In this document: positions 27,630 through 54,104 of the stretch, in pieces
Position numbering within the stretch: position 1 is the first letter of the stretch
Layout: the number at the start of each line of letters is the position of its first letter
DNA from: a virus
Taxonomy: Duplodnaviria > Caudoviricetes
Reading direction: 5' to 3' (one strand)
DNA length: 64,000 nucleotides
IMG/VR virus record: IMGVR_UViG_3300021400_000134
Translations under genes and position numbers: made by a program
Notes under the pieces: generated by a model
Database searches by the model: none
What the model saw: only the letters and a program-made list of their open reading frames with translations
Told to the model about the DNA's origin: nothing

Positions 27630-29912
27630 TTAACGCCTCCAATTATTAAGTTCTTTAGAGTGTTTATATCTCATTTCGGTTTCTTGGATTTTACCCTTAT
27701 TAAAAGCGGTTTTATAATTTCCTGTTAAATAACCAGTAACCCTTCTTAATCTTTGAATGTTATGACCCCCACACATAGGACAGGTATCATTTAATTCATC
27801 AGTATATCCGCAATCAAGACAGGTATCTACTGGAATATTCAAGGCAAAATAAGGTATATCTTTATCCATAGCATAGTTCACGATTTGTTCTAAAGCATCA
27901 AGGTTATTTTTAACACTTGACTCTAATTCAACATATGTAATGCAACCCGCATTTGAATATCCGGTTAATTGAGACTCAATATCAATTTTCTCGAACGGGT
28001 CCATCTGTTTCCAGACTGGAACGTGAATACTATTTGTGAAATATTCGTTTTCAGAAACATCTCGAATTACGCCATATTTTTTCTTAAATGCTTTCATGGC
28101 AGTATGACATAGATTTTCCGCAGGTGTGTAGTAAACACCAAAGTTTAAGTGTTCTTCTTGCTTGAACTGAGCGCAGCGGTCTTTGTATAACTGTTCAATG
28201 CGTTTTGCCAATTCCATACCTTTTGGTTCTGTGTGATCACAACCAATAAGGATTTGGAGAGTTTCTGCCATACCAAGTTGACCAATTACAAGAGTTCCAT
28301 GCTTTAATGCACTTCTAACGCCTTCTTCTGGCTTATATCCAAGCATTGTACCATTCTCATACATAAACTGGGCAGATGCAGGAGACTGAGAGCACATCCA
28401 TTCATAACGCTCTAAAAGCATGTCTCTTGCTTCATGAAGTTTAGTATCTAATAAATCCATGAACTCTTCAACAACATCATATTCAGATTCTTCACTGTTG
28501 GAAAGTTTAGCGAATGTTTCAACCTTTTCTTTTGCTTCCATTGCTAAGAAAGGAAGTAGAATTGTAACTGGTGCTAAATTACCACGACCATCTTTTGTTT
28601 GCGGATTTGTGCCAGGTTCAGCATTGATATCACTACCATTATAAGTGCGGCATCCCATCGTGCTAACATATGTATTTGGGTCATTGCGGTCATATCCCGC
28701 ATTTGTGCTCCAATCTACATTAACATAGTTTGGATATAATCTTTGTGCGGTTGATTTTAATGCTAACTTAAACAAATCATAGTTAGGGTCACCAGGAGCA
28801 CGATTAACACCTTTCATGCACTGGAAAATTCCACAGGGGAAAATAGATGTTTTATGCAATTTACCAAGGCCTTCAATAGAAACATTTAAAATTTCTTCTG
28901 TAATCATTCTTCCTTCTGGAAGTGTACATGTACCATAATTAATTGAGGTAAAAGGCAACTGGTTTCCAGAACGAGATTGAAGAGTATTCAAGTTATGATA
29001 CATGCCTTCAACCGCTTGATGAATTTCTTTTTTAGTCATTTCTAACGCATAATTATATACTTTTTCACCATACATTTTTGCCGAAATACTATCAATTGGA
29101 AAATTTGCTTTTTTATCTAATTCAAAAGATTTAAATTTTTCAGAATCAAAATTTTCTATATATTTAAGGCCATCCTCAAGGTGTTTCCAAAAGGACTTTC
29201 TTACATATGGTACCATAGTCCAGTCAATATGACTTGCGCTAACACCACCAAACTGCTGTAAAGATTGAAGCTGGAAAATTACTGCAACAAGCTGGAATGC
29301 TGTATTTACTGAATTGGCCGGACGCACATCTGTCTGACGAGTATTAAATCCAGTAGCAAGTAATTTGTCAAAAGGGATTGTTAGACAGTTATGCATACCA
29401 ACAGCATATGAGTCTAAATCATGAATATAGATATAGTGATTAAGATGATTGTTGCGAGACATTTCTGACATACAATAATCAAGTGCGAACTTTTTAGTTA
29501 ATGCTCTATTGGCTTCACCCATGCGGCCACCAAAGGAATGTTCGTCTACATTGGCGTTTTGATTTTGAACGTCACTGGCATCAAGTTTACGAGCAACCTC
29601 TTTCATAAATTGTGTGTTATGTTCTCTTACCCTTGTGCGCTCATAGCGATACTGAATGTAGGCTCTAGCAACATCTTTGCGGCGACAGCTCATTAGACCC
29701 TGCTCTACCAAATCTTGGATTTCCTCAACGGTAAGTTCATGGTCGCTTTTACTTGCCTGTGAATTAACATAAGTGGCGATATTATCTGCTTTGGCTTTTG
29801 CATATTCATCAATTTTGCCATCGACGTCTTCAAAAGCAGCTAAAACCGCATTCTCAATTTTTGTTCTGTCAAATTCAACAACAGAACCATCTCGTTTGAT
29901 GATTAATAACAT
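27630..29912 (-). CDS. nrdD: Anaerobic (class III) ribonucleoside-triphosphate reductase with ATP cone
   Basis: IIKRDG ATP cone, MGCRT, TPAENLC, CxxC..CxxC, RRVTGYL glycyl-radical motif. Confidence 0.97.
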   Translation of the reverse strand: MLLIIKRDGSVVEFDRTKIENAVLAAFEDVDGKIDEYAKAKADNIATYVNSQASKSDHELTVEEIQDLVEQGLMSCRRKDVARAYIQYRYERTRVREHNTQFMKEVARKLDASDVQNQNANVDEHSFGGRMGEANRALTKKFALDYCMSEMSRNNHLNHYIYIHDLDSYAVGMHNCLTIPFDKLLATGFNTRQTDVRPANSVNTAFQLVAVIFQLQSLQQFGGVSASHIDWTMVPYVRKSFWKHLEDGLKYIENFDSEKFKSFELDKKANFPIDSISAKMYGEKVYNYALEMTKKEIHQAVEGMYHNLNTLQSRSGNQLPFTSINYGTCTLPEGRMITEEILNVSIEGLGKLHKTSIFPCGIFQCMKGVNRAPGDPNYDLFKLALKSTAQRLYPNYVNVDWSTNAGYDRNDPNTYVSTMGCRTYNGSDINAEPGTNPQTKDGRGNLAPVTILLPFLAMEAKEKVETFAKLSNSEESEYDVVEEFMDLLDTKLHEARDMLLERYEWMCSQSPASAQFMYENGTMLGYKPEEGVRSALKHGTLVIGQLGMAETLQILIGCDHTEPKGMELAKRIEQLYKDRCAQFKQEEHLNFGVYYTPAENLCHTAMKAFKKKYGVIRDVSENEYFTNSIHVPVWKQMDPFEKIDIESQLTGYSNAGCITYVELESSVKNNLDALEQIVNYAMDKDIPYFALNIPVDTCLDCGYTDELNDTCPMCGGHNIQRLRRVTGYLTGNYKTAFNKGKIQETEMRYKHSKELNNWRR

Positions 29913-29990
29913 TTTTGTTTCCTCCTAAGTATTTATATATGTTAAGGAGTCACAATGACTCAATTATATATAAGTTTTATAATGTGGTTT

Positions 29991-30572
29991 TTATTTACTT
30001 TTGGCCTCTTCTATAATTTTAGCCAAATCTTCATAGATAAATTCGTCATCATCATATGAGTCAGTAGAATTATTTATAACGGAATAAAATGGAACCTGTT
30101 CACTGATTTTTTCAATTCTGTCTTCATTAAAGTCCTTTTCATCTGTTTTATATCTTCTGAAAATTTCTTCAATATCACTAGCATCTCTCTCTAATTGGCG
30201 AATTAGCCTAAGCGCATCATCTGTTTTTAGATAAATAATAGTTAAGTCAAGCTGCTTATTTTTAATTAACTGTTCAATACCTCTTAGGTTAAAAACTCCA
30301 ATATTAACTTTCTTAGGGTCTAAGTCACTATATCTTGTACCATATCGCCAGCCCCTAAATACACACTGCTCAATAAAATGATTGCTTAGAAACTGACTAT
30401 CTGAAAGAAAATGGTAATTAATATTGGGTCGTTCATTCCAGCGAGCTGGGCGAGTCGTACATGAGACAATCTCATGCAACGACTCGTCGTTATCGCATAT
30501 TTTTCTTAACCAAAAGTCTTTTCCAGAACCAGCTTTTCCAATTAACGCAATTATCTTAATCTTCTTCATCAT
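29991..30572 (-). CDS. gmk: Guanylate kinase-like protein
   Basis: GKAGSGKD, SCTTRPARWNE...YHF, WRYGT. Confidence 0.85.
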   Translation of the reverse strand: MMKKIKIIALIGKAGSGKDFWLRKICDNDESLHEIVSCTTRPARWNERPNINYHFLSDSQFLSNHFIEQCVFRGWRYGTRYSDLDPKKVNIGVFNLRGIEQLIKNKQLDLTIIYLKTDDALRLIRQLERDASDIEEIFRRYKTDEKDFNEDRIEKISEQVPFYSVINNSTDSYDDDEFIYEDLAKIIEEAKSK

Positions 30573-33500
30573 ATTCTCCCTGTGCTCTTGTTGACTGTAA
30601 TTTAATTTCAGTTCCATCTTCACTGATTTCTGAAATTCTATATAACTGATGGGCCATACCTGTATCAGCATATTTCTTAGGAATAAAAGTATCTTCCATT
30701 CTAATGCCCTGAACTACAAGCATATTACCTCTACTGAACCAGCTCTTTTCGATAACATGCTTAACACCATCTGTGCCCATCGCAGAAATTTGTTTGTCAA
30801 ATAAGGCGAAGTATTCTTTTCTAAACTTTACATCTACAACGCCAGTAGTAGTTAATAAAGTAACTGTTGAGCGGATTTTATCTTTTGCAATACAAGTTCC
30901 GCAAATTGTATATAACTGAAATTTCTTAATAGTGTGACCATTTTTTGTAGTCCATATCTTTGTAACAATTGGGGTTGTTGGCAAATCATTAAAGTTTGAA
31001 TAACCATACTTTCTTGTATCCAATTTTGCCAATTCATGCTCATGATAATAGAAACAAAGCACTTCCATCTCCCAAGCAGATAATGTACCCGCCGCATATT
31101 TATCCCAATCTGCTTTAAAAATGGTATCATTAAGTTTTTGTAAAATTTGAGTTTTGTTTTCAGAAATCCAATTTCTAAATACGTTCATCCATTTCTGATA
31201 AACCTTATCCCAAGTATTTGCTGGCAAGACACTGCCATCAATTAGATTATCATATTCCATTTCAAGCAAGAAATTCATTGCTCTTGTATCTAATCTATAA
31301 TATTTTTTAGTTGGATCAATACAAACCTTTTTTAAGTATCTATTAAACTCAAAGACACGTCTTGCGGCAACCTGCTCAGCGGTTTCTTCTGGTAATAAAC
31401 CATGTTTAATTAAACCTGGCATATTTTGCAGAGTTAAACGCTTTTTCTTATCACAGGTTTCCCAAATATACCAAGCCATTGTAAACCTTCTATCTTCCAT
31501 ATTATCAAAAGCGCCACCTTTAATCAAACTTATCATAGCCTGTTTATTAGGCTTGACCTTTTGAAGATAATCTTTTGGTGAACTATATGGACGCATTTCG
31601 ATGGTTTTTGCGATAACATCATCTCCAACATTCAACATACTCTTTAAGCCAAACAGAATCTGATTATTTTCAATGTCTGGCTCAAAACCAAGAGCAGACT
31701 TATTGATATCAACAAGACTTACTTTAATGCCCTCGCTCATAATATCTCCAAGAGCTTTTGCCATCTTAACATAATCTGTTGAACCACCAGCAGTAGTTCC
31801 GCTGTTAACAGTTAAGCAAGCTGTATTCCAATAAATTGGATTAAATCTTGTGCCGATATAAGCGGTTTGATAACCAATAAACGAATAAGCCAATGCATGA
31901 ATAATTGAGAATGAATAACCCATCTGCGGACCAACGCCATACTGCCAGACATAACGTCCAAGTGCCGGAGATTTAGCTCTTGTAAGAACCTGTTCTCTTA
32001 ACGCAGGGATTTTATTCATCTGCTTCTTACCAACAATCTTTCTTGCGGCATTGGCTTCACCAAGGCCAAATCCGCAAATGTTTTCATCCATAAGCATTCT
32101 CATTAACTGTTCCTGGCTTGGAGGAACGCCATAAGAAGATAAGAAGTAAGGCTCTAATGTTTTTTGCTCTTCTGGAGTTAATCCAGCCTTTCGCATTTCC
32201 TCATACCATAGACTAATGTTCTTTTTAAAACGAACATACTTATCCATGGGTGTTTCCGCACCTCGTTCCGCAGTCATAAGTCTCATAAGACCATTGGCAT
32301 CAGCCAACTCAAGAATAGTTTTTGGCTGAATCTTTTTTGCGGCCTGCGCTCCAACCATTGAATCAAACTGGAAGATATTAATAACAGTTCCATTTTCAAT
32401 GGCATCCCAAGCAGGTTTATAATCCAATGGTAATACTTCAGGATGGAAATATTTATCATAAACTTCTTTTAAAGTTAGATTTGGTTCAATTTCGCCATTT
32501 TTCTGTAATAAGTTAATTGTTTCAACTAACTTATCTTGAACATCAGTAACTAAGAAGTCAAATTTAGTCATTCCAAGACTTTCGCACATATGGAGGTCAA
32601 ACTGTGTAATAACATCGCCTCCTGGCGTCTTCATAAAAGCACCAAATTCATATGGGTCTTCGTCAAAAAAGATAACACCAGAAGCATGAGAACCTCTTTG
32701 TTTAACTAAGCCCTGAATACCCAACATAATGTCAACTAAACCAGGATAATTATTTATTTCATTAATAAAAGGTAATACTGGCTGACGTTCTTTTTCTACA
32801 TTACCATATATTACATCTTCAAGAGGCCATACAAAACCTCTTTCAGATGGGATAAGAGAAGAAAGATACTGTGCTTGGTCTGAATCAATGCCACTAGGAT
32901 ATTCTTCTGAACGATACCCTCTACAAGCTGTTAAAATTGCGCTCTTAGTTGATTCTGTACCATAGGTTGCAATTAATGTACATCCAAGATTTTTACGAGA
33001 CAAATCATCTACATTAGCATTAAAATTTTGACCTCGTTCTTCTTTAATCTTTTCAATAATCATTGGGCGCTTTGATGGACATAAATCCAAATCAATATCA
33101 CCAAGTTCAATGCGCTCTTTATTTAAATAACGGAAGAAAGGTAAGTTCCATTTTATAGGGTCAAGCTGAGTAACACCTAATAGATAATGATTAAGTCCTG
33201 AACAAGAAGAACCACGGCCCGCACCTACCATGCTCCCGCAATCCCAAAACATATTAATATAATGCTGCAATGTTACAGGATAACAGAACATATTGGTTTC
33301 AAGCTTTTCACTAATGGTTTTCTTTACATCGGCTTCTTCTTCTAATCGAGCAAGATATGTGTCATTATCTTTACCCAATTCTTTTAATTTCTTTAAACAT
33401 TCATCAACCCAATATCTTTCATAAATATCTTTCGACATTCTCATATTTTTAATAATTGGGAACTTATTTAAAGAGTTATCTTCATATGGGGGCGAAGCCT

Positions 33501-34443: not shown

Positions 34444-34516
34444 TTTCTCAACACCTCTTTTATATATTATAACATAAAAAAGTCTATTTTGCAAGACTTC
34501 TCTATTTTAACTGGCT

Positions 34517-36727: not shown

Positions 36728-38467
36728 TTAGAAATAATACTCTTGTTTACGCACGATATTATAATCTGTTATAATCACTTCTGGGCCATTATCCCAGCCG
36801 CTATTGCGCATACATCTACCAACAATATCAAGAATATAACAACCTTCGCCAGGGTATAAACTATCAAACTCTTCTTGTGAACTCTTGAACTTAACAATTG
36901 CAATATTGTCAGGTAGAGTAATTTTCAAAGTTGAACCAAATAAATTGATATTATCTTTTGTAATTGAAACATTCTTTAAAGCAATCAGAGGTTCATCAAC
37001 TTCTTGACCCCAAACGTAATCAGCATCTGCTAATTCAAGAATATCTGCGGCGTCTATTTTATTTGCTAAAAACTCAATATCAACATTATATGTTAAAGAG
37101 AAATCATAATCTTTTAATAGTTCATTCGAATAAGCCAAGAAATCTTTTACATTTGAATCAGGAATGGCTAGACCTAAAGCGTTATCATGGCCTTGCGCTA
37201 GTGTAAAATATCCACTATTTTTTGCCAATTGCTGCAATGATTCTACTCCGGCCGCAGGGTTATTACGTCCAGAACCAGCCCACACCAGTTCTCCAGTTTC
37301 TTCATCAAAAGTCTTATTCAGTAGCATTACAGGATGACCGTAAGAAGACATTAACTTATTCGCAATTAAGCCTGTGATAGATCTAGTTTCTTCTGTTGGC
37401 TCATCAAGTTTTACAAGCAATATCTTATTATCCAAAAGATGCTCTGTTTTAATTTGAAAATCAATGTTATCCGCAAGAGTATCTCTCATTTTATTCTGCC
37501 TATTTTTTGCGTTATTACAAATGCGGCAAGCCTGTTCGACAACAGTTTCCATTTCACCAGCCTTATGACCTCTTTTAATTGAAGGAACTAATGAATATGC
37601 TTTGTGATTAAGAAATGATTCAAACAAAATTTCTTTTTCTTTTTGTGTGCCAACTCTAGTGATTGCGTTTACTGCTGGAGCAATATACCAAGCAACCCCA
37701 GTTGGAGTGAGCTTACCTTTTAATGAGTATTCATTCTTTGCAACCATTGCTTTAATAAATGGATTTTCTATATTAGCCAACCCTTTATCAATAAGTCGTC
37801 TTGTTTCATAATCTTTCAAAGGCATAACATCGGCAATAATACCCAACGCCGCAATATCCAAGAGTTCATCGGCAGTTGTTTTCTTATTTAATTCATCTAT
37901 ATAAGAGCAAAATTTATAAACCATGCCAACGCCACTTAATGATTTAGTTGGATAATTTTCATCAAGTTGGTTGTTTATTACTATGGCAAAAGGGCTATAA
38001 CCAGAAGTATTATGGTGGTCAATAACAATAAGGGCAATATTGTTTTTATTAAGTTCTTCATGCTTATCATATTCTTCACTCCCCGCGTCTGGACATATTA
38101 CTAATTGCGGTTTTCTTTCCATGATTTGGTCCATTAACAGACCATGACCCTTGTCTTGGTGCATTCCCCAAGACAGGTGATTTACTGAAAAACCGGGAAA
38201 ATTTTTATATAACCAATTAATTAAAAATGCTGAACTTGTATAGCCATCGCAATCGCTATCTATATTTACAAAAATATCATGTTCCGCAAATATATGTTGT
38301 ACTAAACAAGCTGCGGCTTCTTTCATATTCGTAATCGTTTCAGGCGGAATAATATCTTCATCTGTAGTATGTAAATAATGATATGGGTCCTCAATTCCCC
38401 TATTCTTTAAAACTCTATATAAGGCAGACCCAGCCCTATTTTCTTCATTTATTAATTTATATTGCAT
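36728..38467 (-). CDS. recJ: RecJ-like ssDNA exonuclease (DHH family)
   Basis: DSDCDG, IDHH, LSGVG, GHDNA. Confidence 0.92.
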   Translation of the reverse strand: MQYKLINEENRAGSALYRVLKNRGIEDPYHYLHTTDEDIIPPETITNMKEAAACLVQHIFAEHDIFVNIDSDCDGYTSSAFLINWLYKNFPGFSVNHLSWGMHQDKGHGLLMDQIMERKPQLVICPDAGSEEYDKHEELNKNNIALIVIDHHNTSGYSPFAIVINNQLDENYPTKSLSGVGMVYKFCSYIDELNKKTTADELLDIAALGIIADVMPLKDYETRRLIDKGLANIENPFIKAMVAKNEYSLKGKLTPTGVAWYIAPAVNAITRVGTQKEKEILFESFLNHKAYSLVPSIKRGHKAGEMETVVEQACRICNNAKNRQNKMRDTLADNIDFQIKTEHLLDNKILLVKLDEPTEETRSITGLIANKLMSSYGHPVMLLNKTFDEETGELVWAGSGRNNPAAGVESLQQLAKNSGYFTLAQGHDNALGLAIPDSNVKDFLAYSNELLKDYDFSLTYNVDIEFLANKIDAADILELADADYVWGQEVDEPLIALKNVSITKDNINLFGSTLKITLPDNIAIVKFKSSQEEFDSLYPGEGCYILDIVGRCMRNSGWDNGPEVIITDYNIVRKQEYYF

Positions 38468-38468
38468 C

Positions 38469-39572
38469 CTATAGCATAATCCTCTCTTTATATAACTGTA
38501 AAAACTTTTCTAATCCATCATCAATGGGAGAATCTTTATATCCTGTTTTCATATTTTTATCAAATATGAAACTTATCTTTATATAATTTCCATATTTATT
38601 ATATAATTTTATCAAGTTCTTTTTTAATTTTTTAAATTCATCATCGCCAATTTGCTGAAACTGGCGGTCAAGGGCAACAATAACTTCTTGAACCCCCAAG
38701 TCCATTAGAAGGTTCATTTGATAACCCGATATATTACTGCCGCAACAGGCAACAGATATATCATTTTCATGCCCGAAATAAGATTGATATTTTAAACAAG
38801 ATTTTTCACCTTCAAAAATAATTGCTCTATTGGATAAGGCTATATTTTTTTTAGCATTATTTAAGTTATATAAAGACATTCCAAGAGGATGATTGTACAT
38901 TTTTTTATTGATTATAATAGGACGATATTTACCATACATTTCGCCATCTTCTTTGCTAAGTGTGCGGCCCCTCAACCCGATAAAGCGATTATCTTTATCG
39001 AAATGAGGAATTGATATTTGATTTCCACCTGGATAGTAACCTATCTTATTAAAATCTATTACTTCTTGACTAATACCTTCATTTAACCAAGGCAGAATTT
39101 TTACATCGTAGTTAAGTACTTTTAGAATATCCTTATTGTAAGCTTCTAGTTTTACATTATATTGTTTAATTTCAATCTGTTGTATTCTATCATATTTGCT
39201 AAACACAGACCAGTCTTCTAATTGGTCGCTATCATCGTCCATAACGAACGAACCAGCGATACCAAATCTGAAAGCAATTAATCTAATAGCATCATTTAAA
39301 TTAATTCTTTGATTTTTTTGAATATCATATACTTTAATGGCAAGTTCAAATATGTCAAATGAATCATCGCCAGCAGTATATGATTTAAAAAGTCCACTGT
39401 TTTCATAGTAGTAGAGTTTGCGGCTGCCCTCTCCTGGCGGATTATGGTCAATAGTTTCTGCCAAGATACCGAAACTGGCATATTGGGGGTCACCACCCCA
39501 CTCTAACAAAAGGTCGAATATGTCATTAGTCGTTAAGGCCTCTCTTATTTCTTGCTTGTCGTAATTTATCAT
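38469..39572 (-). CDS. DNA primase (TOPRIM)
   Basis: IPH....IGLRGR, IFEGEKS, VALD. Confidence 0.85.
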   Translation of the reverse strand: MINYDKQEIREALTTNDIFDLLLEWGGDPQYASFGILAETIDHNPPGEGSRKLYYYENSGLFKSYTAGDDSFDIFELAIKVYDIQKNQRINLNDAIRLIAFRFGIAGSFVMDDDSDQLEDWSVFSKYDRIQQIEIKQYNVKLEAYNKDILKVLNYDVKILPWLNEGISQEVIDFNKIGYYPGGNQISIPHFDKDNRFIGLRGRTLSKEDGEMYGKYRPIIINKKMYNHPLGMSLYNLNNAKKNIALSNRAIIFEGEKSCLKYQSYFGHENDISVACCGSNISGYQMNLLMDLGVQEVIVALDRQFQQIGDDEFKKLKKNLIKLYNKYGNYIKISFIFDKNMKTGYKDSPIDDGLEKFLQLYKERIML

Positions 39573-39586: not shown

Positions 39587-41122
39587 TTATTCGGTATCAA
39601 ATGCTCCACGTTCTACCTTAATTTGATAATCATCCATCTCAATTAACTGATAACGCCAGTCTGTTGCGAATATTGGATTAACTCTACATGTTCCTAAATC
39701 TGCTTTACACCATAAGTAGATGCCTTTATATTGACCTCTACGGTTTTTGTAAATAGACAATTTTAGATTTGGTTTTTCATATACATTCTGTCTCAAGATA
39801 GCCTCTAACGAGTCAGTATCTTTTTGAGTTACTGGTAGAAGAATACTACCATAGTCAATTTTATCCGCAATTGCTTTGGCGCCACGCAGCAAGTTTTGGT
39901 CAGGAGTTTCAGACTCTTGGTAATCAGCATTTAGCTGTGTAGCAGACTCAATAAAGATACCATATTTATTACAAATATCTTTCAACCTAATTGATAACAT
40001 GAATAGTACGTTATCTTCTCTTAATCTTACCCCGCCAGAGCGACGAGTAACTTCTTCCAAAATTTTCATTGAGGTATGAATATAATCATGGAAAACATAT
40101 TTTATATTATGTTCTCTAATACCTTTTTTAATTCTATCTTCAACATCTTGAAGAGAAAAGTCAGGAAGTTCTTCTACATAAATAGGAGAGTTCTTTAAGA
40201 TTTCTGCGGCCTTACGGACACGCTCAACTTCATCGCCTTCATACTGATTGCTAATGATGTGTTCTTCATTTACAGAAGATAAGAAAGCAAGCATCATTGT
40301 TTGAATTTCTTCTAGTTCCTGTTCAGTAGAAATATACAAGCAAGGTTCCGCAATTCCATTTCCAATCCAACCTAGCATATCATCATAAATCATATCTGTG
40401 CCGATATAGCAACAGTCCGCAATCATGGAACGAGATTTACCGACGCCAGTGGGTGCTGAACGAAGATAAAACTTTTTAAGTCTTGCGCCACGAGTAACCC
40501 TATTAATGAACTTACCATATAATGGTGAACCTACTTCTGGATATGTCATTAATCTATCAATTAAGGCATCAATACCTTCACCGGCCTGGTGTGTATCTCC
40601 AAAAGTATCACTAACACATTCAAGGCGAATTGAGTCAACAATTGCATCTACTTTATCCGCAATATCTGTTAAACTCATATTATCCAGCTGTTCTTCTTGC
40701 AACTGTAGTTTTTTGGTATCAATTTCATCAGGATTGTAAATAAAATTAACATCAATGCCATATGAGTCATAGGCTCTTAATAGAGTCATTTTCTTCATTC
40801 TACTATAGTAGAAATCAAAGGCTGACGGGATGGCTTTCTCTGCTGCACTTTTTAGCCATTCTTCACCTTTGTTTACTGTAAAAATGGCTTCACTTTTTGG
40901 TTTTGTGGATAAGAAATCGCAAATACTCTCTATCGAAATAGAGGTAGCTCCAAGTTCATAAACTTTATAAATAGCACCAAAGACTACTCTATGAAAATCT
41001 GATACAAAATCTTCTTCTGTAATTACATATTTATCTGTCTCTTCAAGTAATTGTGGTTTTATAAACACACTTCCAATAACCTGAACGATTGCAACTGTAT
41101 CTAAATACTTACTCGCCATCAA
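39587..41122 (-). CDS. Replicative DnaB-like helicase
   Basis: SAPTGVGKS, YISTE, DYIH, ATQLN, KNRRG. Confidence 0.9.
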   Translation of the reverse strand: MMASKYLDTVAIVQVIGSVFIKPQLLEETDKYVITEEDFVSDFHRVVFGAIYKVYELGATSISIESICDFLSTKPKSEAIFTVNKGEEWLKSAAEKAIPSAFDFYYSRMKKMTLLRAYDSYGIDVNFIYNPDEIDTKKLQLQEEQLDNMSLTDIADKVDAIVDSIRLECVSDTFGDTHQAGEGIDALIDRLMTYPEVGSPLYGKFINRVTRGARLKKFYLRSAPTGVGKSRSMIADCCYIGTDMIYDDMLGWIGNGIAEPCLYISTEQELEEIQTMMLAFLSSVNEEHIISNQYEGDEVERVRKAAEILKNSPIYVEELPDFSLQDVEDRIKKGIREHNIKYVFHDYIHTSMKILEEVTRRSGGVRLREDNVLFMLSIRLKDICNKYGIFIESATQLNADYQESETPDQNLLRGAKAIADKIDYGSILLPVTQKDTDSLEAILRQNVYEKPNLKLSIYKNRRGQYKGIYLWCKADLGTCRVNPIFATDWRYQLIEMDDYQIKVERGAFDTE

Positions 41123-45326: not shown

Positions 45327-45576
45327 AACCCTTACAATGACAACCTATTATGTCTAAAAATTCATCAATATCATCAATGTAAGCATTTTCTTTATTATAT
45401 TCTGCGGTTTGTAAGAAATCTAAATAAGAAATAATATTAATATCATACCCGTAAGCACGAGCCTTTACTAACATTGCTTCTGGATTTCTACAAACTAATG
45501 TGGCGCTTTCTTGCTGGCATAAAGCCATTAATTTTTTTGTTTTTCCGGAACCCGGTTCTCCAATAATTTTTACCAT
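45310..45576 (-). CDS. Small P-loop protein
   Basis: GEPGSGKT and YIDD. Confidence 0.65.
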   Translation of the reverse strand: MVKIIGEPGSGKTKKLMALCQQESATLVCRNPEAMLVKARAYGYDINIISYLDFLQTAEYNKENAYIDDIDEFLDIIGCHCKGFGGNV

Positions 45577-46568
45577 TAATTTCTATTCCCCTGGAGTGTA
45601 TTATAACCCCAATCTGTACTGCTATAAAAATCAATTCAATATCTTTCACGTTCGTTTAATGCTTCTCTCTCGCATTCTTCCAGTATTTCATACATAAATG
45701 CTTCTGGACCAGAAGTCTTCATTTCTGTATAAAATCTATTATTTGAGGAAGCAATACCGAGACCTGCTTTTATATGATCTCTTAAACGGTTTCGTAAATC
45801 TACTGATTGGCCTATATAGCACTGCCCTGAATTTATATTTGTAATTTTATAAATGCCACAATGAGTTTGTCCAGTAGGAGTTAATCTACCTAATAAATCC
45901 ATTGTAGGTCTCTTGTAGTAAAGTTCCCAAATAATTTTATTTATTGGTTCAGGGTCTTTATTTAATTTCTTTGCTACATCTTTTAACATTGAAATATCTT
46001 CAATATCTTCTTCTGAAACCTTTATTTTATAGTAATCTTTTGACTGTTCATCAAGCATACGTCTTTTATCTGCGGCGATTGCGGAATCTGCTTTTTCTTT
46101 TAGAATTGCAAGTTCGTTGGTGACAGTTTCTAATTCCAACTTTTTTTCGTTAATCGTATCAGTAAAATACTTGGTGCTTTCTTCAAGAGTTTTTAGATAT
46201 TCATCCTTATGTTCTTTCTCTGCTTTTTGATAGTGATACATTGCTATTTCCGCAGATTGAGACATTTTCTCTTGCATTAAATCATAAGATTTCTTGTAGA
46301 TTTCTTCTGTTGCGGCTGTTGCCTGTTTGCTTATTGTGTCAATATCAGCATATAATGAGCTCTTGTGGCGCTCTAATGCGGCGGTTTCAGTTTCCGCAGA
46401 AGCAACTTCCGCATTTAGTTTGGCTATTTCATCTTGTAAACTTGAATTTTCAATTTTTAATCTATTGTTCTTTTGGACTATTTCTTCATCAACTTTATGT
46501 TTTGGATATAAATAAATGATAATTCCAATTAATAGTCCAATTATAGCCGCACAAACTCAAATCATCAT
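45576..46568 (-). CDS. Membrane-anchored coiled-coil protein with C-terminal GIY-YIG nuclease (330 aa; TGA at codon 4 and in ERERY(W)I)
   Basis: AAGGAG RBS; MMI(W)VCAAIIGLLIGIIIYLY; CGIYKITNINSGQCYIGQS; TAA overlaps the next ATG. Confidence 0.8.
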
Positions 46569-46639
46569 TTTCTCCTTAAAAAAGAAGGGGTAGATATTAG
46601 TTATTACCTACCCCAGTATACTTACTGAATTAACCCAAA

Positions 46640-46906: not shown

Positions 46907-46972
46907 AATATTTTTTCTCCTTATTTTTTATTTTTATGTAAAAATTATATCACAAATTTTTATTTAAGTCAA

Positions 46973-47167
46973 TTATCTTTTCAAAATTTTTTGAACCATA
47001 TCATCTATTTCTACCATATCTTCCAATCCTAAATTATACTTGACGGTTAGATGCATGATTTCATCTTTGGCTGATTCTACAGCTTGCCTATCACTATTGT
47101 TCCGAATAATCTGCTCTGCTACTGCGATTTTTTGAGCGATTTTCTTTCTTAATGACTTACTTGCCAT
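46973..47167 (-). CDS. Hypothetical protein
   Basis: Short ORF with RBS. Confidence 0.55.
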   Translation of the reverse strand: MASKSLRKKIAQKIAVAEQIIRNNSDRQAVESAKDEIMHLTVKYNLGLEDMVEIDDMVQKILKR

Positions 47168-47210
47168 ATTCGTTCCTTAATTTTTACAATGATATTATAC
47201 ATAAAATTTT

Positions 47211-49166
47211 TTATTCTTGCAAGAATTTTTCAATAAATTCCTGTTCGGTAATAATCGGCACGCCCAGCTTTTTCGCAGTAAGGTTTTTAGATGAGGTGCT
47301 TGTGTTGTCGTTGTTGATTAAATAGTTTGTTTTTGCGGAAACGGCACTTGAAACTCTACCGCCTCTAGATTCAATTTCAGATTGAAGTGCTGCTCTGTTT
47401 TTATACTGCTTTAATGAACCGGTAATTACAACTACAATATCTTTTAAATTATCTAAATTGTCTTCTTCTTTTGTGGACGTAGGCCACTTTTCTAATGCCG
47501 CACCAGCCAAGATAGCTTCACCATAATCAAAGTTTAGGATTGAGCCTACTCGTTCTGGGCCAAAACCATCAATGGTATAAAAGTCAAAGCCAGACCCCTC
47601 TTCAGTTGCATGTATAAAAGATGGAAAATCTTTGAAATGTTTAGCCAATTCTTTTGCCTGACTCAAACCAATTAATGGTATTCCAATAGCAGAAATATAT
47701 CTTTCTAATGGAATATCTGAAGTTCTGATATTTTCAATCGCTTCAAGAATATTGTCTACAGATTTAATCCCAAAACCAGATTTTGAAACCCACTCATCTC
47801 TATGATATTTTAACTCAAAAATATCGTGGAATTCTTTTACCCAATCCCAATCAATTAATTTCCCAAGAGTTGCTTTAGAGAGACCTTTAATATCTAAGCC
47901 TTTCTTGCCACAAAAATGGTCTAAATGATTGACTAATTTGCCTTCACAGTTTGGATTAGAACAAACTAAATTTTCAACGCCATCACTGGATGTAATGATT
48001 GCGGTCGGTGCTCCACAGATAGGACAAATCTCGGGTATTTCGATCGGTTCATCGAGATCCGCAGGTTCAGCACTTAATATCTGTGGTATTATCATATTTG
48101 CTTTATAGACCTTAACTTTTAAGCCTTGTTTTAATACCTTTAAAGTGCTTTTCATTACACTTAAATTATGAAGTGATGCACGTTCAATAACAGAACCATC
48201 TAATTCAATAGGTTCAAATACTGCTACTGGTGTTAAAATACCGGTTCTTCCCATAGTCCAATCTATATATTTTAATGTAGATTCAACCACTTCTATTTCT
48301 GGTTTCCAAGCAATTCCATTTTTGAAATGATGAGAAGTTTGCCCCAAAGAGTTTCCATATTCAGTATCATTAAATTTCCAAACAACACCATCACAAGGAT
48401 ATTCGTCTTTGAAAGATATAATTATATTATTCGTTGATTTAATTTCATCCATTGGTATATCTGTAATAAAATAAACTATTTCAAATCCGTAGGATTGAAT
48501 TTCAGCTAACTTTTCACTTAATAGTTTATAATTACTACCAACAATAACATCCCAAGCAATAAAAGATAATTTTCTATCTTTTACTAATTGAGTATCTAAT
48601 ACATTAAGAGCACCTGCTGCTGCGTTTCTTGGATTTTTGAACTCATTATTTTTATTTATTTCTTCAAAATCTGGTATTTTAATTATAGCTTCACCATCAA
48701 CAATAAGCTCTTTTTGATATGGAATTTCCATTGGAACATTCTGAAATTGTTTAATATGCTCAGTAATGTCAGTACCTTCAACTCCATTACCGCGGGTGTT
48801 TGCGGAAATCAATTTACCATTATTATATTTGATGCGTACTGATAAACCATCTAGTTTTAACATCGCTATCATTTTGTGATTATTCGCAAAATCCGCAACC
48901 TCCTCGTCGGAGTGGCACTTGTCTAGACTAAGCATTGGTTTCGGTGTAATAGGAACTCTTTTTAAAGAGGATAAAACCGGTGCTCCAATTTTTTGTGTCG
49001 GACTAATGGAAAGGATAAAATCATTTTCTTTTTCAAAATTGGAAATCTGCTGAAACCAGTAGTCATATTCTTGATCCGACATAATTGGATTTTCTGAATT
49101 ATAATATGCATCGGAGGCTTCATTTAATCTATGAACGAGTTGAGAGTATTCTTCTTTTAATAACAT
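47211..49166 (-). CDS. ligA: NAD-dependent DNA ligase
   Basis: KLDG, TRGNG, NPRNAAAG, DGVV, GRTG, Zn finger, BRCT. Confidence 0.96.
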   Translation of the reverse strand: MLLKEEYSQLVHRLNEASDAYYNSENPIMSDQEYDYWFQQISNFEKENDFILSISPTQKIGAPVLSSLKRVPITPKPMLSLDKCHSDEEVADFANNHKMIAMLKLDGLSVRIKYNNGKLISANTRGNGVEGTDITEHIKQFQNVPMEIPYQKELIVDGEAIIKIPDFEEINKNNEFKNPRNAAAGALNVLDTQLVKDRKLSFIAWDVIVGSNYKLLSEKLAEIQSYGFEIVYFITDIPMDEIKSTNNIIISFKDEYPCDGVVWKFNDTEYGNSLGQTSHHFKNGIAWKPEIEVVESTLKYIDWTMGRTGILTPVAVFEPIELDGSVIERASLHNLSVMKSTLKVLKQGLKVKVYKANMIIPQILSAEPADLDEPIEIPEICPICGAPTAIITSSDGVENLVCSNPNCEGKLVNHLDHFCGKKGLDIKGLSKATLGKLIDWDWVKEFHDIFELKYHRDEWVSKSGFGIKSVDNILEAIENIRTSDIPLERYISAIGIPLIGLSQAKELAKHFKDFPSFIHATEEGSGFDFYTIDGFGPERVGSILNFDYGEAILAGAALEKWPTSTKEEDNLDNLKDIVVVITGSLKQYKNRAALQSEIESRGGRVSSAVSAKTNYLINNDNTSTSSKNLTAKKLGVPIITEQEFIEKFLQE

Positions 49167-49230
49167 ACGAGTCCTTTCTTACACATTTATATTATATCAT
49201 AATTTTTATAAAAAGAAAAGGTATAATTTC

Positions 49231-51552
49231 TTATACCTTTGAAACAGATTGTAATCTATCTTTTAATACTATATTGCCAGCTGCGGTTCTGCCTAAAATT
49301 GGGATTTCTTTTGCGGAAATACAAATGGATTTAGAAACCCCAATAGCCAAGACTGAATCTTCGTCACTTAGTAATGCCGCAGATGCTACATCATCAGATG
49401 ACTTGTAGCAAGTAATTCCCTTACCACCTCGCTTCTGGAGGACTAAATCACTTGCCGCAATTCTCTTACCAAAACCGCCAGTAGAGAAAATACCGAGCGA
49501 GTCATTACTATCTCTTACTACAAGGGTAGAAACAACTTCATCTCCATCATTTAAGTTAATACCCTTAACGCCAGAAGTTGCTCTTGATGTTGGCGAAATC
49601 TCGGTTGAATTAAATTTAATGCACATACCCTTTTTGGTAATTAAGATAATGGGTTCGTCTTTAACAAGTGATACATTAGCAAGATTATCGCCTTCTCTTA
49701 ATGTAATTGCGCCAATACCAGTTTTCTTCCTTGTCTTAGTATATTCTTCAAGAGAGGTTTTCTTTACTAATCCATTTTTGGTTGTAAATAACACATATTT
49801 AGCATCAGTATCTCTATAAATTGAATAGATTACTGTTGGATTTTCATTTGGCTGCATCTGAATTAAATTCTTAATAGATACACCCTTTGTGGCGTTGGTG
49901 CCTTCTGGAATTGAATCAACGATTAAGCGATACATATTACCCTTGTCAGAGAATATCATTAGTGAATCAATTGTGTTCGTTCGAATTACCGCATTCACAA
50001 TATCATCTGCGGTTTTAACCCCCTTGCCACCTCTACGCTGGGTGCGGAATGAGGAAGTTGGTATTCTCTTAATTAAACCTGAATCTGTCATTACAACAAC
50101 CACTTTTTCAGGTTCAACATATTGGATTTCTTTATCTTCTTTTTTAACTTCAATTTGAGCCAATTCAGTTTTTCTAGCATCCCCATATTTCTTAACAAGG
50201 TTTGCCAGGATGTTTTTAATTGACTGATATTGAGTATCTGGTGTTGCTAACCAGTTTTTAATATCCTTAATAGTTGAAACTAATTCTTTTTGCTCGTTTT
50301 GAATTTCAACTTTTTCCAAATTGGCTAAACTACTAAGTCTCATAGCAAGGATAGCTTTCGCTTGCTCTTCTGAGAACTTATATACTTTTATAAGTTCCTC
50401 TCTTGCAGTCGCCGCAGATGAAGATTTTCTAATTAAAGCAACAATATTATCAATATCTTCAAGAGCTTTCAATAATCCCTCTACGATATGAAGTCTATTT
50501 TGAGCCTTTTCTAAATCAAATTGCTTTTCTCTCTTTAAGCATTCAAGAGCATTTTCTACATAAATCTTGCAGCAGTCTTTTAGATTTAACTCTGTTGGAG
50601 TCTTACCCACAAGTGCAACTTGATTATATGAGAAACTTGATTGTAAATTTGTTTTAGCGAATAACTGATTTGCTATATAATCAGAATTTCTATCACATTC
50701 AACTACAATTCTGACACCTTTTTTATTAGTTTCATCTCTTACATCAACAATGCCCTCAATATCTTCAGCAACTTCACCAATTTCCGCAACTAAAGACTCA
50801 ACATTTGTTCCATAAGGGATTTCATAGAAGATAAGATTATTTTTTTCTTTCTTATATTTTGCTCTAATTTTGACAGAACCATGACCTGTTTTCATGATTG
50901 CGGGGATATCGTTTTTATTGATGATAATTCCACCTGTTGGGAAATCAGGACCAGGTAGTGTTGGCTCTTTACCGTCGATGTAATCATCAATTGCCTGTGC
51001 AACTTCAGTTAAATTATGTGGAGCCCAGGAGCAAGCCAATGCCACACCAATTCCGCTATTAGGATTACAAAGAAGGTTTGGGAAATATGATGGTAAAACT
51101 ACTGGTTCTTCCATAGTTTCATCATAATTTGGAATAAAATCCACATTATTTTTCTTTAACCCCTGCAATAAACCATCTTCTGCGATTTTTGCTAATCTTG
51201 CTTCTGTATAACGTGCGGCCGCAGGTCCATCACCAACGATATTACCATTATTGCCATGCCAGTCAATAAGAGGATATCGCATAACCCAATCTTGTGAAAG
51301 TCGAGCCATTGCTCCATAAATTGAACTGTCACCATGGGGGTGCAATTTACCCATAACATCGCCAACAATACGAGCCGCTTTAACATGCGGTTTTGAAGCA
51401 GTACGACCTTCCATAAGGCAAGAATATAAGATGCGTTTTGCTACTGGTTTTAAACCATCTGCGGCGCTGGGGATAGCACGATCGGAATTAACGGCATACG
51501 CATATTCAATAAAATTAGTATGTAATTCATTATAAATATCGTTATTCTGCAT
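49231..51552 (-). CDS. gyrA: Type II topoisomerase subunit A (GyrA/ParC)
   Basis: DGLKPV, HPHGDSS, AAARYTE, QRRGGKG GyrA-box, beta-pinwheel repeats. Confidence 0.95.
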   Translation of the reverse strand: MQNNDIYNELHTNFIEYAYAVNSDRAIPSAADGLKPVAKRILYSCLMEGRTASKPHVKAARIVGDVMGKLHPHGDSSIYGAMARLSQDWVMRYPLIDWHGNNGNIVGDGPAAARYTEARLAKIAEDGLLQGLKKNNVDFIPNYDETMEEPVVLPSYFPNLLCNPNSGIGVALACSWAPHNLTEVAQAIDDYIDGKEPTLPGPDFPTGGIIINKNDIPAIMKTGHGSVKIRAKYKKEKNNLIFYEIPYGTNVESLVAEIGEVAEDIEGIVDVRDETNKKGVRIVVECDRNSDYIANQLFAKTNLQSSFSYNQVALVGKTPTELNLKDCCKIYVENALECLKREKQFDLEKAQNRLHIVEGLLKALEDIDNIVALIRKSSSAATAREELIKVYKFSEEQAKAILAMRLSSLANLEKVEIQNEQKELVSTIKDIKNWLATPDTQYQSIKNILANLVKKYGDARKTELAQIEVKKEDKEIQYVEPEKVVVVMTDSGLIKRIPTSSFRTQRRGGKGVKTADDIVNAVIRTNTIDSLMIFSDKGNMYRLIVDSIPEGTNATKGVSIKNLIQMQPNENPTVIYSIYRDTDAKYVLFTTKNGLVKKTSLEEYTKTRKKTGIGAITLREGDNLANVSLVKDEPIILITKKGMCIKFNSTEISPTSRATSGVKGINLNDGDEVVSTLVVRDSNDSLGIFSTGGFGKRIAASDLVLQKRGGKGITCYKSSDDVASAALLSDEDSVLAIGVSKSICISAKEIPILGRTAAGNIVLKDRLQSVSKV

Positions 51553-51739
51553 TAATTCCCTCCAATATATCTGCCATAGCTTCTTCAAAAATATATAATC
51601 TTTCCATAATTAATTGTATTTGTTCATTAGTAAGGTCTTCTGCATAATCACCTATATTTCTATAAATGCCTTTTTTATTTGGGCCTATATATAAAACAGT
51701 TCCCCATTGATTCTTTATAGTTAAACGATTATTCTGCAT
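51542..51739 (-). CDS. Small inserted ORF (MQNN...INAE*)
   Basis: GGAGG RBS; start and stop lie in the repeated AATGCAGAATAA junction. Confidence 0.6.
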   Translation of the reverse strand: MQNNRLTIKNQWGTVLYIGPNKKGIYRNIGDYAEDLTNEQIQLIMERLYIFEEAMADILEGINAE

Positions 51740-51944
51740 TAACTGCCTCCAATTTATCCCAGGTTGTGTCATATCGTCGATTATTCCACAATACTTTAAC
51801 ATAATTCCCATAAAAATTGCGAAATTCTCCTAAATATTCTACAATTTCTCCTTTTGGAATATTTGGATATTTTAATGCTGCTTGAGTCATAAAATCTTCG
51901 TCATATATTTCTCTCAATGCTCTTAACTTTATACTATTCTGCAT
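51729..51944 (-). CDS. Small inserted ORF (MQNS...VNAE*)
   Basis: GGAG RBS; repeated junction motif. Confidence 0.6.
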   Translation of the reverse strand: MQNSIKLRALREIYDEDFMTQAALKYPNIPKGEIVEYLGEFRNFYGNYVKVLWNNRRYDTTWDKLEAVNAE

Positions 51945-51973
51945 CAAACCACTCCTTTTTATCTCTATATAAG

Positions 51974-52189
51974 CTATTTAACCTTTTTATAAAATATATT
52001 ATAAGTGTTTTCATGAAAAAAGAAAGTGTAATTATTTTGATATTTATAATTAAAATAATCTATTAATAAATTACATAATTCTATATCTTTTTCATCAAAA
52101 TGAAACCATCCTTCGTTATAATCTTTATCTAACCTTTTTATATCATTTAAGAACTTTACTTCATATTTTTTAGCAATTCTACTCTGCAT
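51974..52189 (-). CDS. Small inserted AT-rich ORF (MQSR...)
   Basis: ATG overlaps the gyrB end (NAE*). Confidence 0.5.
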   Translation of the reverse strand: MQSRIAKKYEVKFLNDIKRLDKDYNEGWFHFDEKDIELCNLLIDYFNYKYQNNYTFFFHENTYNIFYKKVK

Positions 52190-54104
52190 TATATAACCCC
52201 GCTTCATTACTATATTCCTTAATATATTCTTTTCTTAAACTAGCACTTTGACCCATAAGAGTTTCAAACAGTGTTTCAGTTGCCGCAATATCTTCAACAG
52301 TAATTTGTTTAATAATTCTGTTTTCGGGATTGGTTAAAGTTTCTTCAGTCTCTTCGACTGACATCTCTCCAAGTCCCTTAAGCCTATTAATTAGATATTT
52401 TACACCCTTATTCTGCTCTCTAAATTCATCCAAAGCCGCATCGTCTTTTAGGTATTTATAACCCTTATTTCCAGGTAGCGTAATCTTATAAAGAGGAGGT
52501 ACTCCCGCATATACATATCCATCTTCAATTAACTGTGGACAAAAATTCCAAATAAACGTATAAAACAGATTCTTGATATGCGCACCATCGACGTCAGCAT
52601 CAGATTCGATAATAATTTTGCCATATCTCAAATCTTCTGGCTTATAAGTAATCTTCATTGTCTTTGTGTCAACAGTCAATCCAAAAGCGTCAATCATTGT
52701 CATAATTTCAGCATTCTTTTGGATTTTTTCAAGGGTTGCTTTTTGAGTATTAAGTATCTTACCTCTTACTGGCATAACCGCTTGAAAAGAGTTGTCTCTT
52801 GCTAGTTTAAGGTTGCCAGAAGCAGAATCACCCTCTGTAATATAAATTTCACACTGATTGCGGGGTTTACCTTTACAATCAGCAAGCTTTGAATCAAATT
52901 TTAAAGCTTTTTCCTTTTTCTTTACTTGCGCACGGGCATTATCTCTAGCCTTTTTTGCGGCTTCTCTAGCCTTGCGGGCATTGATAGCCTTATCCGCAAT
53001 TAACTTAACCTCTTTTTCATTGACGTTCATCCATGCTTCAAGATTATCAATAATTGCTCTTGTAAAAGGCGTCATATCGATTTTAGTAATTCTTGATTTA
53101 ACTTGAGCATCATATGCTATTCCTGGTGCTGTAATATTAAAAACAACATACAAGCCTTCTTGAATATCATCACCAGTTAAATTTTCATCTTTATCTTTGA
53201 GCCATTTCTTTTCCTTAAAGAATTTGTTAAATTCTCTTGTTAAAATGGTTTTTACCTGCGTAATGTGTTGGCCTGACTCAGTAAGACCGGTATTAACATA
53301 AGGAACAATAGTAGAGCCATAGGCAGATGTATAAGTCATTACCATATCCATTTTATTCTTGCCATTGGTAAAATTCATTACAAATCTATTATCAATCAAT
53401 TCCTTGTCTTTTACGGCATTATCTACTAAATCATTAATACCATTTTTTGAGAAGTAAACGGTTTCTTTTCCGTTATCATTAAGATTGATTGTTAATCCTG
53501 GACATAGAGCTGTGATGGTTCTGCAAAGATCTTTTACTTTAGAAATTTCTACTTCAGTATGAGTAAAAAATTCTTCAGAAGGTTGCCATTCTACAACAGT
53601 ACCATTTTGAAAATTAGAGCTTTTTAATGAACTACGTTTATCAAAAACGCCCTCTTTGAACATAATATCTTCTGAATCACCGTCTCTATAAGTACATACT
53701 CGTAAAGTATGAGATAAAAAAGTGGTAATTTTACTACCAATACCGAAAGAACCAAGAGAAGTTCCTTCATATGTTCCATCTTCACGATATTTTCCTGAAG
53801 TATTTAAAACACTAAATGCTGCTTCAAGAATTGTTTTCCCATCTTCTCTAAAAGAATTAGGGATAAAACCCTGCCCATAATCTCGAACTTTAACTTTATC
53901 CTTATCAATGAATATTTCAATTTTATTGCCATGACCCAATCTAAATTCATCAATAGAATTAGATAAGATTTCAACCAAAAGTTGAGTAGAATATGTAGTA
54001 TCACCTGCATATACACCAGGACGAAGTCTAGTAAACTCTAATGGTGAAAGAGATTCAATACTAGCTTCATTATATAAAGTTTTATCTATTTTCTTTTTTA
54101 CCAT
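52179..54104 (-). CDS. gyrB: Type II topoisomerase subunit B (GyrB/ParE)
   Basis: LRPGVY, EILSNSIDE, DYGQG, EGDSA, PVRGKILN, DADVDG, KGLGEM. Confidence 0.95.
   Translation of the reverse strand: MVKKKIDKTLYNEASIESLSPLEFTRLRPGVYAGDTTYSTQLLVEILSNSIDEFRLGHGNKIEIFIDKDKVKVRDYGQGFIPNSFREDGKTILEAAFSVLNTSGKYREDGTYEGTSLGSFGIGSKITTFLSHTLRVCTYRDGDSEDIMFKEGVFDKRSSLKSSNFQNGTVVEWQPSEEFFTHTEVEISKVKDLCRTITALCPGLTINLNDNGKETVYFSKNGINDLVDNAVKDKELIDNRFVMNFTNGKNKMDMVMTYTSAYGSTIVPYVNTGLTESGQHITQVKTILTREFNKFFKEKKWLKDKDENLTGDDIQEGLYVVFNITAPGIAYDAQVKSRITKIDMTPFTRAIIDNLEAWMNVNEKEVKLIADKAINARKAREAAKKARDNARAQVKKKEKALKFDSKLADCKGKPRNQCEIYITEGDSASGNLKLARDNSFQAVMPVRGKILNTQKATLEKIQKNAEIMTMIDAFGLTVDTKTMKITYKPEDLRYGKIIIESDADVDGAHIKNLFYTFIWNFCPQLIEDGYVYAGVPPLYKITLPGNKGYKYLKDDAALDEFREQNKGVKYLINRLKGLGEMSVEETEETLTNPENRIIKQITVEDIAATETLFETLMGQSASLRKEYIKEYSNEAGLYNAE

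Follow-up and report, generated by a model that had tools for sequence, protein, structure and literature searches.

The window analysed here, a stretch of 64,000 nucleotides from the IMG/VR record IMGVR_UViG_3300021400_000134 (Duplodnaviria; Caudoviricetes), is part of the genome of an uncultured phage (GC ∼34%) whose genes fall into two classes with respect to the codon TGA. TGG and TGA are neutral synonyms in its late genes, where TGA encodes Trp, and TGA is strictly excluded from its early genes; here and throughout, early and late are labels assigned from gene function. TGA is kept out of the early genes by selection, and we consider it probable that its use for Trp by means of a phage tRNA is accepted only in proteins made later in the infection of a host that itself uses the standard code.

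The window consists of two arms that are alike in GC content (∼0.33–0.37). On the plus strand, from ∼2.4 to 23 kb, lie genes for tail fibres, virion structure, endolysin and holin (identified with Pfam and PHROGs). At ∼23 kb the GC skew and the coding strand both change over and a minus-strand arm starts, with genes for a RuvC-like resolvase, dUTPase, NrdG, NrdD, a nucleotide kinase, DnaE, an SF1 helicase, a RecJ-like DHH protein, primase, DnaB, an AAA_24 ATPase, LigA, GyrA, GyrB, RNase H and a sigma-70 family factor. Relatives were drawn from IMG/VR as 78 loci around DnaE, and three whole records were used for comparison: the sister genomes G002 (176 kb, DnaE identity 86%) and G001 (178 kb, 81%), and the standard-code genome G008 (196 kb with terminal repeats, 63%). 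Near-complete sister genomes range in size from 161 to 178 kb. The phage is of virulent type and rich in tRNAs, and no GenBank phage gave a megablast match to 24 kb of the replication arm.

Open reading frames (ORFs) were called under translation table 11 (the standard code) and table 4 (TGA read as Trp) and then compared. The replication arm (26463–54155, minus strand; 28 genes, 9091 codons) had a raw count of 3 TGA and 102 TGG, and differed sharply from the tail/virion block at 2481–16384 (Fisher p=6e-33 on raw counts that still included a spurious TGA in gyrB). Once the GIY-YIG endonuclease gene at 45576–46568 was set aside, the arm held 0 TGA and 100 TGG. The features on which this comparison is based are as follows.

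26463–26966, minus strand: NrdG-like activase of anaerobic ribonucleotide reductase (PHROG phrog_626, E=1e-42); 0 TGA, 3 TGG, stop TAA
27630–29912, minus strand: NrdD anaerobic ribonucleotide reductase (Pfam NRDD, E=2e-148); 0 TGA, 6 TGG, stop TAA
30556–34494, minus strand: DnaE-type DNA polymerase III alpha (Pfam PHP, DNA_pol3_alpha, finger, HHH_6); 0 TGA, 19 TGG, stop TAA
35110–36315, minus strand: SF1 (UvrD/RecD-like) helicase (Pfam); 0 TGA, 5 TGG
36728–38467, minus strand: RecJ-like DHH/DHHA1 exonuclease (Pfam); 0 TGA, 6 TGG
38469–39572, minus strand: DNA primase (PHROG phrog_47); 0 TGA, 3 TGG, stop TAG; the G008 ortholog stops at TGA
39587–41122, minus strand: DnaB-type replicative helicase (Pfam); 0 TGA, 4 TGG; the G008 ortholog stops at TGA
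45576–46568, minus strand: GIY-YIG endonuclease gene (PHROG homing-endonuclease families); 2 TGA (codons 311 and 4), 2 TGG
47211–49166, minus strand: LigA, NAD-dependent DNA ligase (Pfam); 0 TGA, 9 TGG
49231–51588, minus strand: GyrA (Pfam); 0 TGA, 6 TGG
52179–54104, minus strand: GyrB (Pfam), start ATG at 54104 behind a GGGGAG ribosome-binding site; 0 TGA, 4 TGG, stop TAG
2481–16384, plus strand: tail-fibre and virion-protein block, 12 genes including a GIY-YIG endonuclease gene; 87 in-frame TGA, 26 TGG, stops all TAA or TAG

A preliminary description of this DNA, made without database searches, had named the replication genes and claimed that they run uninterrupted under code 11. Both points were confirmed: Pfam recovered NrdD, DnaE, the SF1 helicase, the RecJ-like DHH protein, DnaB, LigA, GyrA and GyrB, PHROGs recovered primase and NrdG, and each named gene gives an identical ORF under tables 11 and 4, as do all ORFs of 26463–54104 with the exception of the GIY-YIG gene. 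That gene is where the picture of a TGA-free arm, correct for all the named replication genes, breaks down. It is the sole TGA-bearing gene of the arm and holds two true in-frame TGAs; codon 311 belongs to the conserved domain, whether codon 4 counts depends on the start chosen, and one TGA falls within a conserved ERERY-W-IDF motif. GyrB was rightly called TGA-free, as the TGA at "codon 4" of its long ORF lies upstream of the true start at 54104, the coordinate at which the preliminary description had ended the block. Together with this gyrB codon, in-frame TGAs in the DnaE of G002 and the GyrA of G008 were rejected as overruns of the alignment or ORF upstream of the true start.

The claim that the replication genes end in TAA or TAG and never in TGA also stood, and extends to all 53 TGA-free genes of the window, which stop at TAA (45) or TAG (8). 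Given the 20% of TGA stops in G008, such an absence has a probability of ∼5e-5 when the 43 genes with 80 aa or more are considered, and of ∼0.003 for the 26 genes of 27630–54104. Tabulated by gene function, as had been proposed as a check, TGA makes up 0 of 100 Trp codons in the early genes and 87 of 113 in the late block, and is thus not the majority Trp codon everywhere, as would be seen in a uniform code-4 genome.

The absence of TGA is not compositional, because off-frame TGA abounds in the replication genes (24.6 per kb vs 13.4 per kb in the late block), GC content is alike in the two arms, and 71% of Lys, Glu and Gln codons in early genes end in A. The corresponding fraction in the late block is 0.86, while the fraction of Trp encoded as TGA goes from 0 in early genes to 0.77 in late ones. 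GC content alone, which the preliminary description had offered as a possible explanation of TGA frequency, therefore does not account for the contrast, off-frame TGA being if anything commoner in the replication genes. Nor does TGA follow the strand: the minus arm also carries an amidase-like gene (55071–55640, 4 TGA), a fibre-like gene (61235–62707, 6 TGA) and the RuvC-like resolvase gene (23682–24191, 3 TGA), so that TGA follows function.

Two further observations concern codon use. Trp-type codons (TGA plus TGG) number 25 per 1000 codons in 2481–16384 and 11.5 per 1000 in the replication genes of 26463–54104. The gene at 1535–2326 (plus strand) has a TGA seven codons ahead of its TAA, which is one possible remaining TGA stop in the window. 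G002 likewise has, outside the replication arm, several small genes in which a TGA precedes the TAA or TAG by one to three codons (e.g. L079:14512–14988). Such near-terminal TGAs may be stops that have survived, each backed up by a second one in frame, giving a near-identical protein under either code.

Selection on TGA was assessed from third-position A/G differences at conserved residues, with Trp (TGG/TGA) set against Lys, Glu and Gln. Between the window and G002, the replication genes (7967 aligned residues, 84% identity) showed no flip at 81 conserved Trp positions, compared with 334 flips at 1243 Lys, Glu and Gln positions (27%; p=4e-11). In the late genes of the same pair, 20 of 55 Trp positions had flipped (36%), beside 17–33% for Lys, Glu and Gln. 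A second pair, G002 and G001, gave the same result for 52 minus-arm genes of the early and replication classes: none of 165 Trp sites had flipped (163 were TGG and 2 TGA in both genomes), vs 28% at Lys, Glu and Gln (p=1e-22). In the other late genes of this pair (those at the capsid-cluster positions are considered below), 24 of 77 Trp sites had flipped, vs 27% at Lys, Glu and Gln (p=0.43). As Trp flips are absent in early genes and occur at the neutral rate in late genes, chance, composition and lack of time are ruled out. The suggestion that the early genes are neutral to either code is thus upheld by their identical ORFs under both tables and by the absence of flips (0/81 and 0/165), and it is purifying selection that holds them code-neutral.

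The assignment of TGA to Trp comes from alignments of conserved positions. In the endolysin, the TGA at residue 145 falls opposite a Trp of the GH25 lysozyme structure 4kru, and its G(L/I)WGNG CW_7 repeats have TGG, TGA and TGA at the Trp conserved in Cpl-7 (5i8l). Across the relatives, in-frame TGA stands opposite a Trp of the window in 125 of ∼200 cases. By these criteria TGA is read as Trp in this phage, and the suppressor tRNA is encoded in the window itself, at the junction of the two arms. The features concerned are:

18944–20875, plus strand: endolysin, GH25 muramidase with CW_7 repeats; 19 TGG and 4 TGA, the latter at conserved Trp positions
21238–21266, plus strand: promoter-like TTGACT-17-TATAAT (11/12), after a terminator at 21201–21228 and ahead of the TGA-free operon with the tRNA
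21888–22165, plus strand: intron-split tRNA with anticodon UCA, exons 21888–21921 and 22128–22165, 206-nt insert after U34

When joined, the two exons fold as a regular cloverleaf with anticodon UCA in ARAGORN, and the tRNA has A1-U72 and G73, like bacterial tRNA-Trp. Intron-free copies occur in three relatives (L004, L005 and L007). The unspliced gene goes undetected, since ARAGORN and Rfam (in gathering and E-value modes) report no tRNA or intron in the window, and a search of five standard-code relatives for the suppressor returned only T-arm matches to other tRNAs. The tRNA lies within a TGA-free operon that follows the lysis genes. The ORF lists of the window show poor coverage by code 11 and good coverage by code 4, and in the sister genome G002 the fraction covered by ORFs rises from 0.59 with code 11 to 0.83 with code 4. 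The earlier proposal that many late genes depend on a suppressor is consistent with all three lines of evidence: the alignment of TGA with Trp, the UCA tRNA in the window and the poor coverage of G002 under code 11. Contigs of such phages call for gene prediction under two codes and for tRNA searches that allow for introns. Directly downstream of the tRNA, 22191–22583 (plus strand) is a TGA-free ORF of 130 aa that gave no lead in Pfam, PHROGs or Atlas and no tblastn homolog in G008.

The phage family comprises standard-code members, members recoded in late genes only and more broadly recoded members. G008 is well covered by ORFs under code 11 (0.815), and 39 of its 190 ORFs (∼20%) end in TGA; nearly all the TGAs that table 4 puts in frame there occur no more than a few codons from the end of an ORF and are therefore real stops. 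Among 38 ortholog pairs of G008 and G002 with aligned C-termini, ten G008 genes stop at TGA; all ten G002 partners stop at TAA, and none of the 38 G002 orthologs uses TGA. Replication orthologs of the relatives gave the following counts.

Close clade (10 loci): TGG:TGA 479:2; TGA stops 0/99
Clade of 61–67% identity: TGG:TGA 581:1; TGA stops 30/95
Third clade: TGG:TGA 171:26; TGA stops 0/27
Remaining distant loci: TGG:TGA 940:1; TGA stops 16/149

With 30 of 95 stops at TGA and a TGG:TGA ratio of 581:1, the clade of 61–67% identity uses the standard code. At the Trp positions of the window's DnaE, the 78 relatives had 1099 TGG and 2 TGA. In L020, L064, L023, L028, L032 and L033 (∼60% DnaE identity), TGA was observed at Trp positions of RecJ, DnaB, NrdD and NrdG (26 TGA:171 TGG), and this clade represents a more advanced stage of recoding in the same phage family. 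Because standard-code members with TGA stops belong to the family, recoding is a trait of the phage lineage; together with the UCA tRNA encoded by the phage, this bears out the earlier view that the recoding is driven by the phage. A separate observation on DnaE is that in L036, L046, L051 and L062 the match spans ∼5.0–5.1 kb instead of 3.9 kb, owing to an insertion of ∼1.1–1.2 kb. This insertion, present in several standard-code relatives, would be an intron, intein or endonuclease gene, and in Enterococcus phages EF1 and EF5, too, an HNH endonuclease gene interrupts DnaE.

These results fit a model in which the phage lineage has reassigned TGA to Trp by its own UCA-anticodon tRNA, presumably charged by the tryptophanyl-tRNA synthetase (TrpRS) of the host. 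TGA would be accepted only in proteins made once this tRNA is active, namely tail fibres, large virion proteins, terminase, portal, endolysin, resolvase and homing endonucleases. Genes for replication and nucleotide metabolism would be translated by the unmodified host machinery, probably at the start of infection. Every TGG-to-TGA change in these early genes is removed by selection, presumably because a TGA there would truncate the protein, and their TGA stops have been replaced by TAA or TAG, probably because early genes would still be translated after the suppressor appears and TGA would then be read through. The outcome is a block that is readable alike under code 11 and code 4.

Several points weigh against this model. 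The order of expression, TGA-free before TGA-bearing genes, is assigned from function alone. The acceptance of TGA in RecJ, DnaB and NrdD by one clade means that neutrality of the early genes is not obligatory in the family. Some genes of G002 that are late by function, at the scaffold, major-capsid and major-tail positions, are free of TGA, which indicates that translation cost also shapes TGA use. Near-consensus, host-type promoters stand before the tRNA operon and two TGA-rich virion and tail genes, so that transcription timing may not cleanly separate the two classes. Finally, the host search covered one bacterial family only and is hence biased, and its search for CRISPR spacers gave near-exact matches of 25–37 nt in the genomes of that one family, none flanked by CRISPR repeats.

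With respect to the promoters, a tail-fibre gene with 4 TGAs is preceded at a distance of 189 nt by a perfect TTGACA-17-TATAAT (12/12; 10747–10775, plus strand), and a virion gene with 15 TGAs at 21 nt by an 11/12 site (5423–5452, plus strand). Of the 11 sites in the window that score at least 11/12, ten are intergenic, and nine of these ten have a gene on the same strand 9–216 nt downstream. If host RNA polymerase reads such sites early, TGA would gate the translation of tail genes independently of transcription. A candidate driver of late transcription is encoded on the minus arm:

57189–58235, minus strand: sigma-70 family factor with regions 1.2, 2, 3 and 4 (Pfam), full-length and TGA-free; 11/12 promoter-like site at 58294–58267 upstream

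The ortholog of this factor in standard-code G008 ends in TGA.

The TGA-free late genes of G002 raise the question of whether translation efficiency, rather than timing, is the main driver, such that decoding of TGA in competition with release factor 2 (RF2) is leaky and costly, and TGA is purged wherever full-length yield matters, entering by drift only those genes that can bear a reduced yield. The genes at the scaffold, major-capsid and major-tail positions have 13 TGG and no flip, although in so small a sample of 13 sites the deviation is not significant (p=0.13). A bias in termination context points the same way: T at position +4 is somewhat depleted after sense TGA (13% vs 21–23%) and enriched after real stops, and is described in PMC5289835 as a strong-termination context, but the bias measured against all codons is marginal (p ∼0.02 in the window, 0.27 in G002). 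The distribution of flips argues otherwise. Low-copy replication enzymes (primase, the RecJ-like protein, ligase and DnaE) fall among the genes without any flip (0/81 and 0/165), low-copy late proteins such as portal, terminase and fibres flip at the neutral rate, and the existence of proteins with 19–24 TGAs implies that late decoding is efficient. We therefore regard efficiency as an unlikely main driver.

The model takes the host to use the standard code. The endolysin, with its GH25 muramidase and CW_7 cell-wall-binding repeats, indicates a peptidoglycan target and thus a walled host. Among cultured phages, those of Enterococcus and Bacillus carry the nearest DnaE homologs (38–40% identity). 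The CW_7 region of the endolysin is 68% identical to a Longibaculum muris protein, and its C-terminal module matches an Erysipelotrichaceae metagenome-assembled genome (MAG); both are weak hints. Genomes in the family of that MAG carry prophage-like genes for a tail fibre (47%) and a CW_7 lysin (61%), and all five genomes of this candidate host family that were examined encode RF2 (prfB). Taken together, this indirect evidence suggests that the host is most likely a walled member of the Bacillota that uses the standard code and RF2.

Were the host itself a code-4 bacterium (UGA=Trp), the replication genes would lack TGA for another reason. Erysipelotrichaceae are related to Mycoplasmatota, which counts in favour of such a host, as does the low GC content (∼34%). 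However, TGA accounts for 80–90% of Trp codons in code-4 bacteria (bioRxiv 10.1101/2022.06.29.495998), compared with 0 of 100 in the early genes despite their 71% of A-ending Lys, Glu and Gln codons. The phage also encodes a UCA tRNA of its own and an endolysin that targets peptidoglycan, its standard-code relatives use TGA stops, and RF2 is encoded in 5/5 genomes of the candidate host family, all of which makes a code-4 host very improbable. Least credible is a recent import of the replication module, by recombination, from a standard-code relative, leaving it too young to have gained TGA: phage genomes are mosaic and homologous modules do occur in standard-code relatives, but within the recoded clade DnaE identity falls to 79–86% with 27–28% of Lys, Glu and Gln positions flipped and no Trp flip, all ten close-clade loci are in the same state (479 TGG, 2 TGA), and the module has no TGA stop left, whereas one imported recently from a clade with 20–32% TGA stops would still contain them.

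Returning to timed suppression in a standard-code host, its demands on translation are considerable. Proteins with 19–24 TGAs include a fibre of 974 aa in the window and proteins of 2055 and 2905 aa in G002; a 50% full-length yield of such proteins needs ∼97% read-through per codon, and late read-through must therefore be very efficient. The preliminary description had noted that the window has neither a release factor nor a TrpRS gene, and indeed none was found among the window ORFs scanned with Pfam and PHROGs. A wider search, made in relatives, for release factor 1 (RF1) and TrpRS was likewise negative: neither an RF-1 domain protein nor a class-Ib synthetase is encoded by three sister genomes that are 93–95% complete, and none was seen in seven less complete relatives, where a blank in a fragment proves little.

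We tentatively suggest that the switch may need more than the tRNA, and that either tRNA(UCA) strikes at the homeostasis of host RF2 or an unrecognised phage protein inactivates RF2. The prfB of the candidate host family has the classical CTT-TGA programmed frameshift site. A tRNA that reads UGA could decode the TGA of this site without a change of frame, so that fewer ribosomes would make the +1 shift that yields RF2, and RF2 synthesis would then drop just as suppression starts, making the switch self-reinforcing. In the literature we found no paper that proposes interference with the prfB frameshift or a phage protein that inactivates RF2. The family offers a good system for studying how a phage overrides host RF2, with prfB frameshift interference as a testable idea.

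Homing endonuclease genes differ in their TGA load. The three GIY-YIG genes of the window have 6 TGA and 0 TGG (7855–8478, plus strand), 0 and 2 (26951–27625, minus strand) and 2 and 2 (45576–46568, minus strand). The second of these lies between nrdG and nrdD, and its Trp positions in relatives are TGA in five cases and TGG in five.

The reading preferred here is not new, as the late-gene pattern was described by Borges et al. and the either-code early block by Pfennig et al.; with two-code phage genomes that contain a code-neutral early block already published, the known picture is unchanged. Borges et al. reported TGA-recoded phages of animal guts in which structural and lysis genes are recoded, replication genes are in standard code and TGA stops are depleted, and proposed a code switch in mid-infection (bioRxiv 10.1101/2021.08.26.457843). 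Our phage shares with theirs the alignment of TGA with Trp, the phage-encoded TGA suppressor tRNA, the placement of TGA in structural and lysis genes with the DNA-replication machinery in standard code, a strongly recoded homing endonuclease gene amid early genes, and the close relationship of recoded and standard-code members. Unlike those phages, it has a suppressor tRNA that is split by an intron and so missed by tRNA finders. The published version of the Borges et al. study appeared in Nature Microbiology in 2022. Among their groups, the Agate clade, with samples that include cattle and a mean genome of 154 ± 27 kb (bioRxiv 10.1101/2021.08.26.457843), is compatible with this phage in genome size and codon pattern. 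TGA-ended genes make up ∼20% in G008 vs 2.7% in a standard-code Agate relative, and RF1 and TrpRS were not found here, unlike in two Jade genomes (bioRxiv 10.1101/2021.08.26.457843).

With Mgcod, Pfennig, Lomsadze and Borodovsky described a "dual-coded" block next to an alternative-code block, which yields nearly the same proteins by either code and is enriched in early replication and transcription genes (bioRxiv 10.1101/2022.06.29.495998). The dual-coded early block expresses the same idea as the neutrality to either code of the replication arm studied here. Their cases are mostly crAss-like with TAG-to-Gln reassignment, and codes 11 and 4 were combined in only 17 likely complete genomes, whereas the reassignment here is TGA-to-Trp. 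The suppressor tRNA is at the 5' end of the recoded block in the Mgcod cases; here it comes after the lysis genes, where the arms meet, in a TGA-free operon of its own. With Mycoplasma, Spiroplasma and their phages, our phage shares a UCA-anticodon tRNA reading TGA as Trp and the loss of TGA as a stop, but there TGA predominates among the Trp codons of all genes, compared with 0/100 in the early genes here, and most uniform code-4 genomes are without RF2 (PMC12421855). To these systems the present analysis adds two independent sister comparisons, with absolute purifying selection against TGA in early genes and neutral TGG/TGA drift in late genes, and a single phage family with three coding states, whose near-complete sister genomes have neither a release factor nor a TrpRS.

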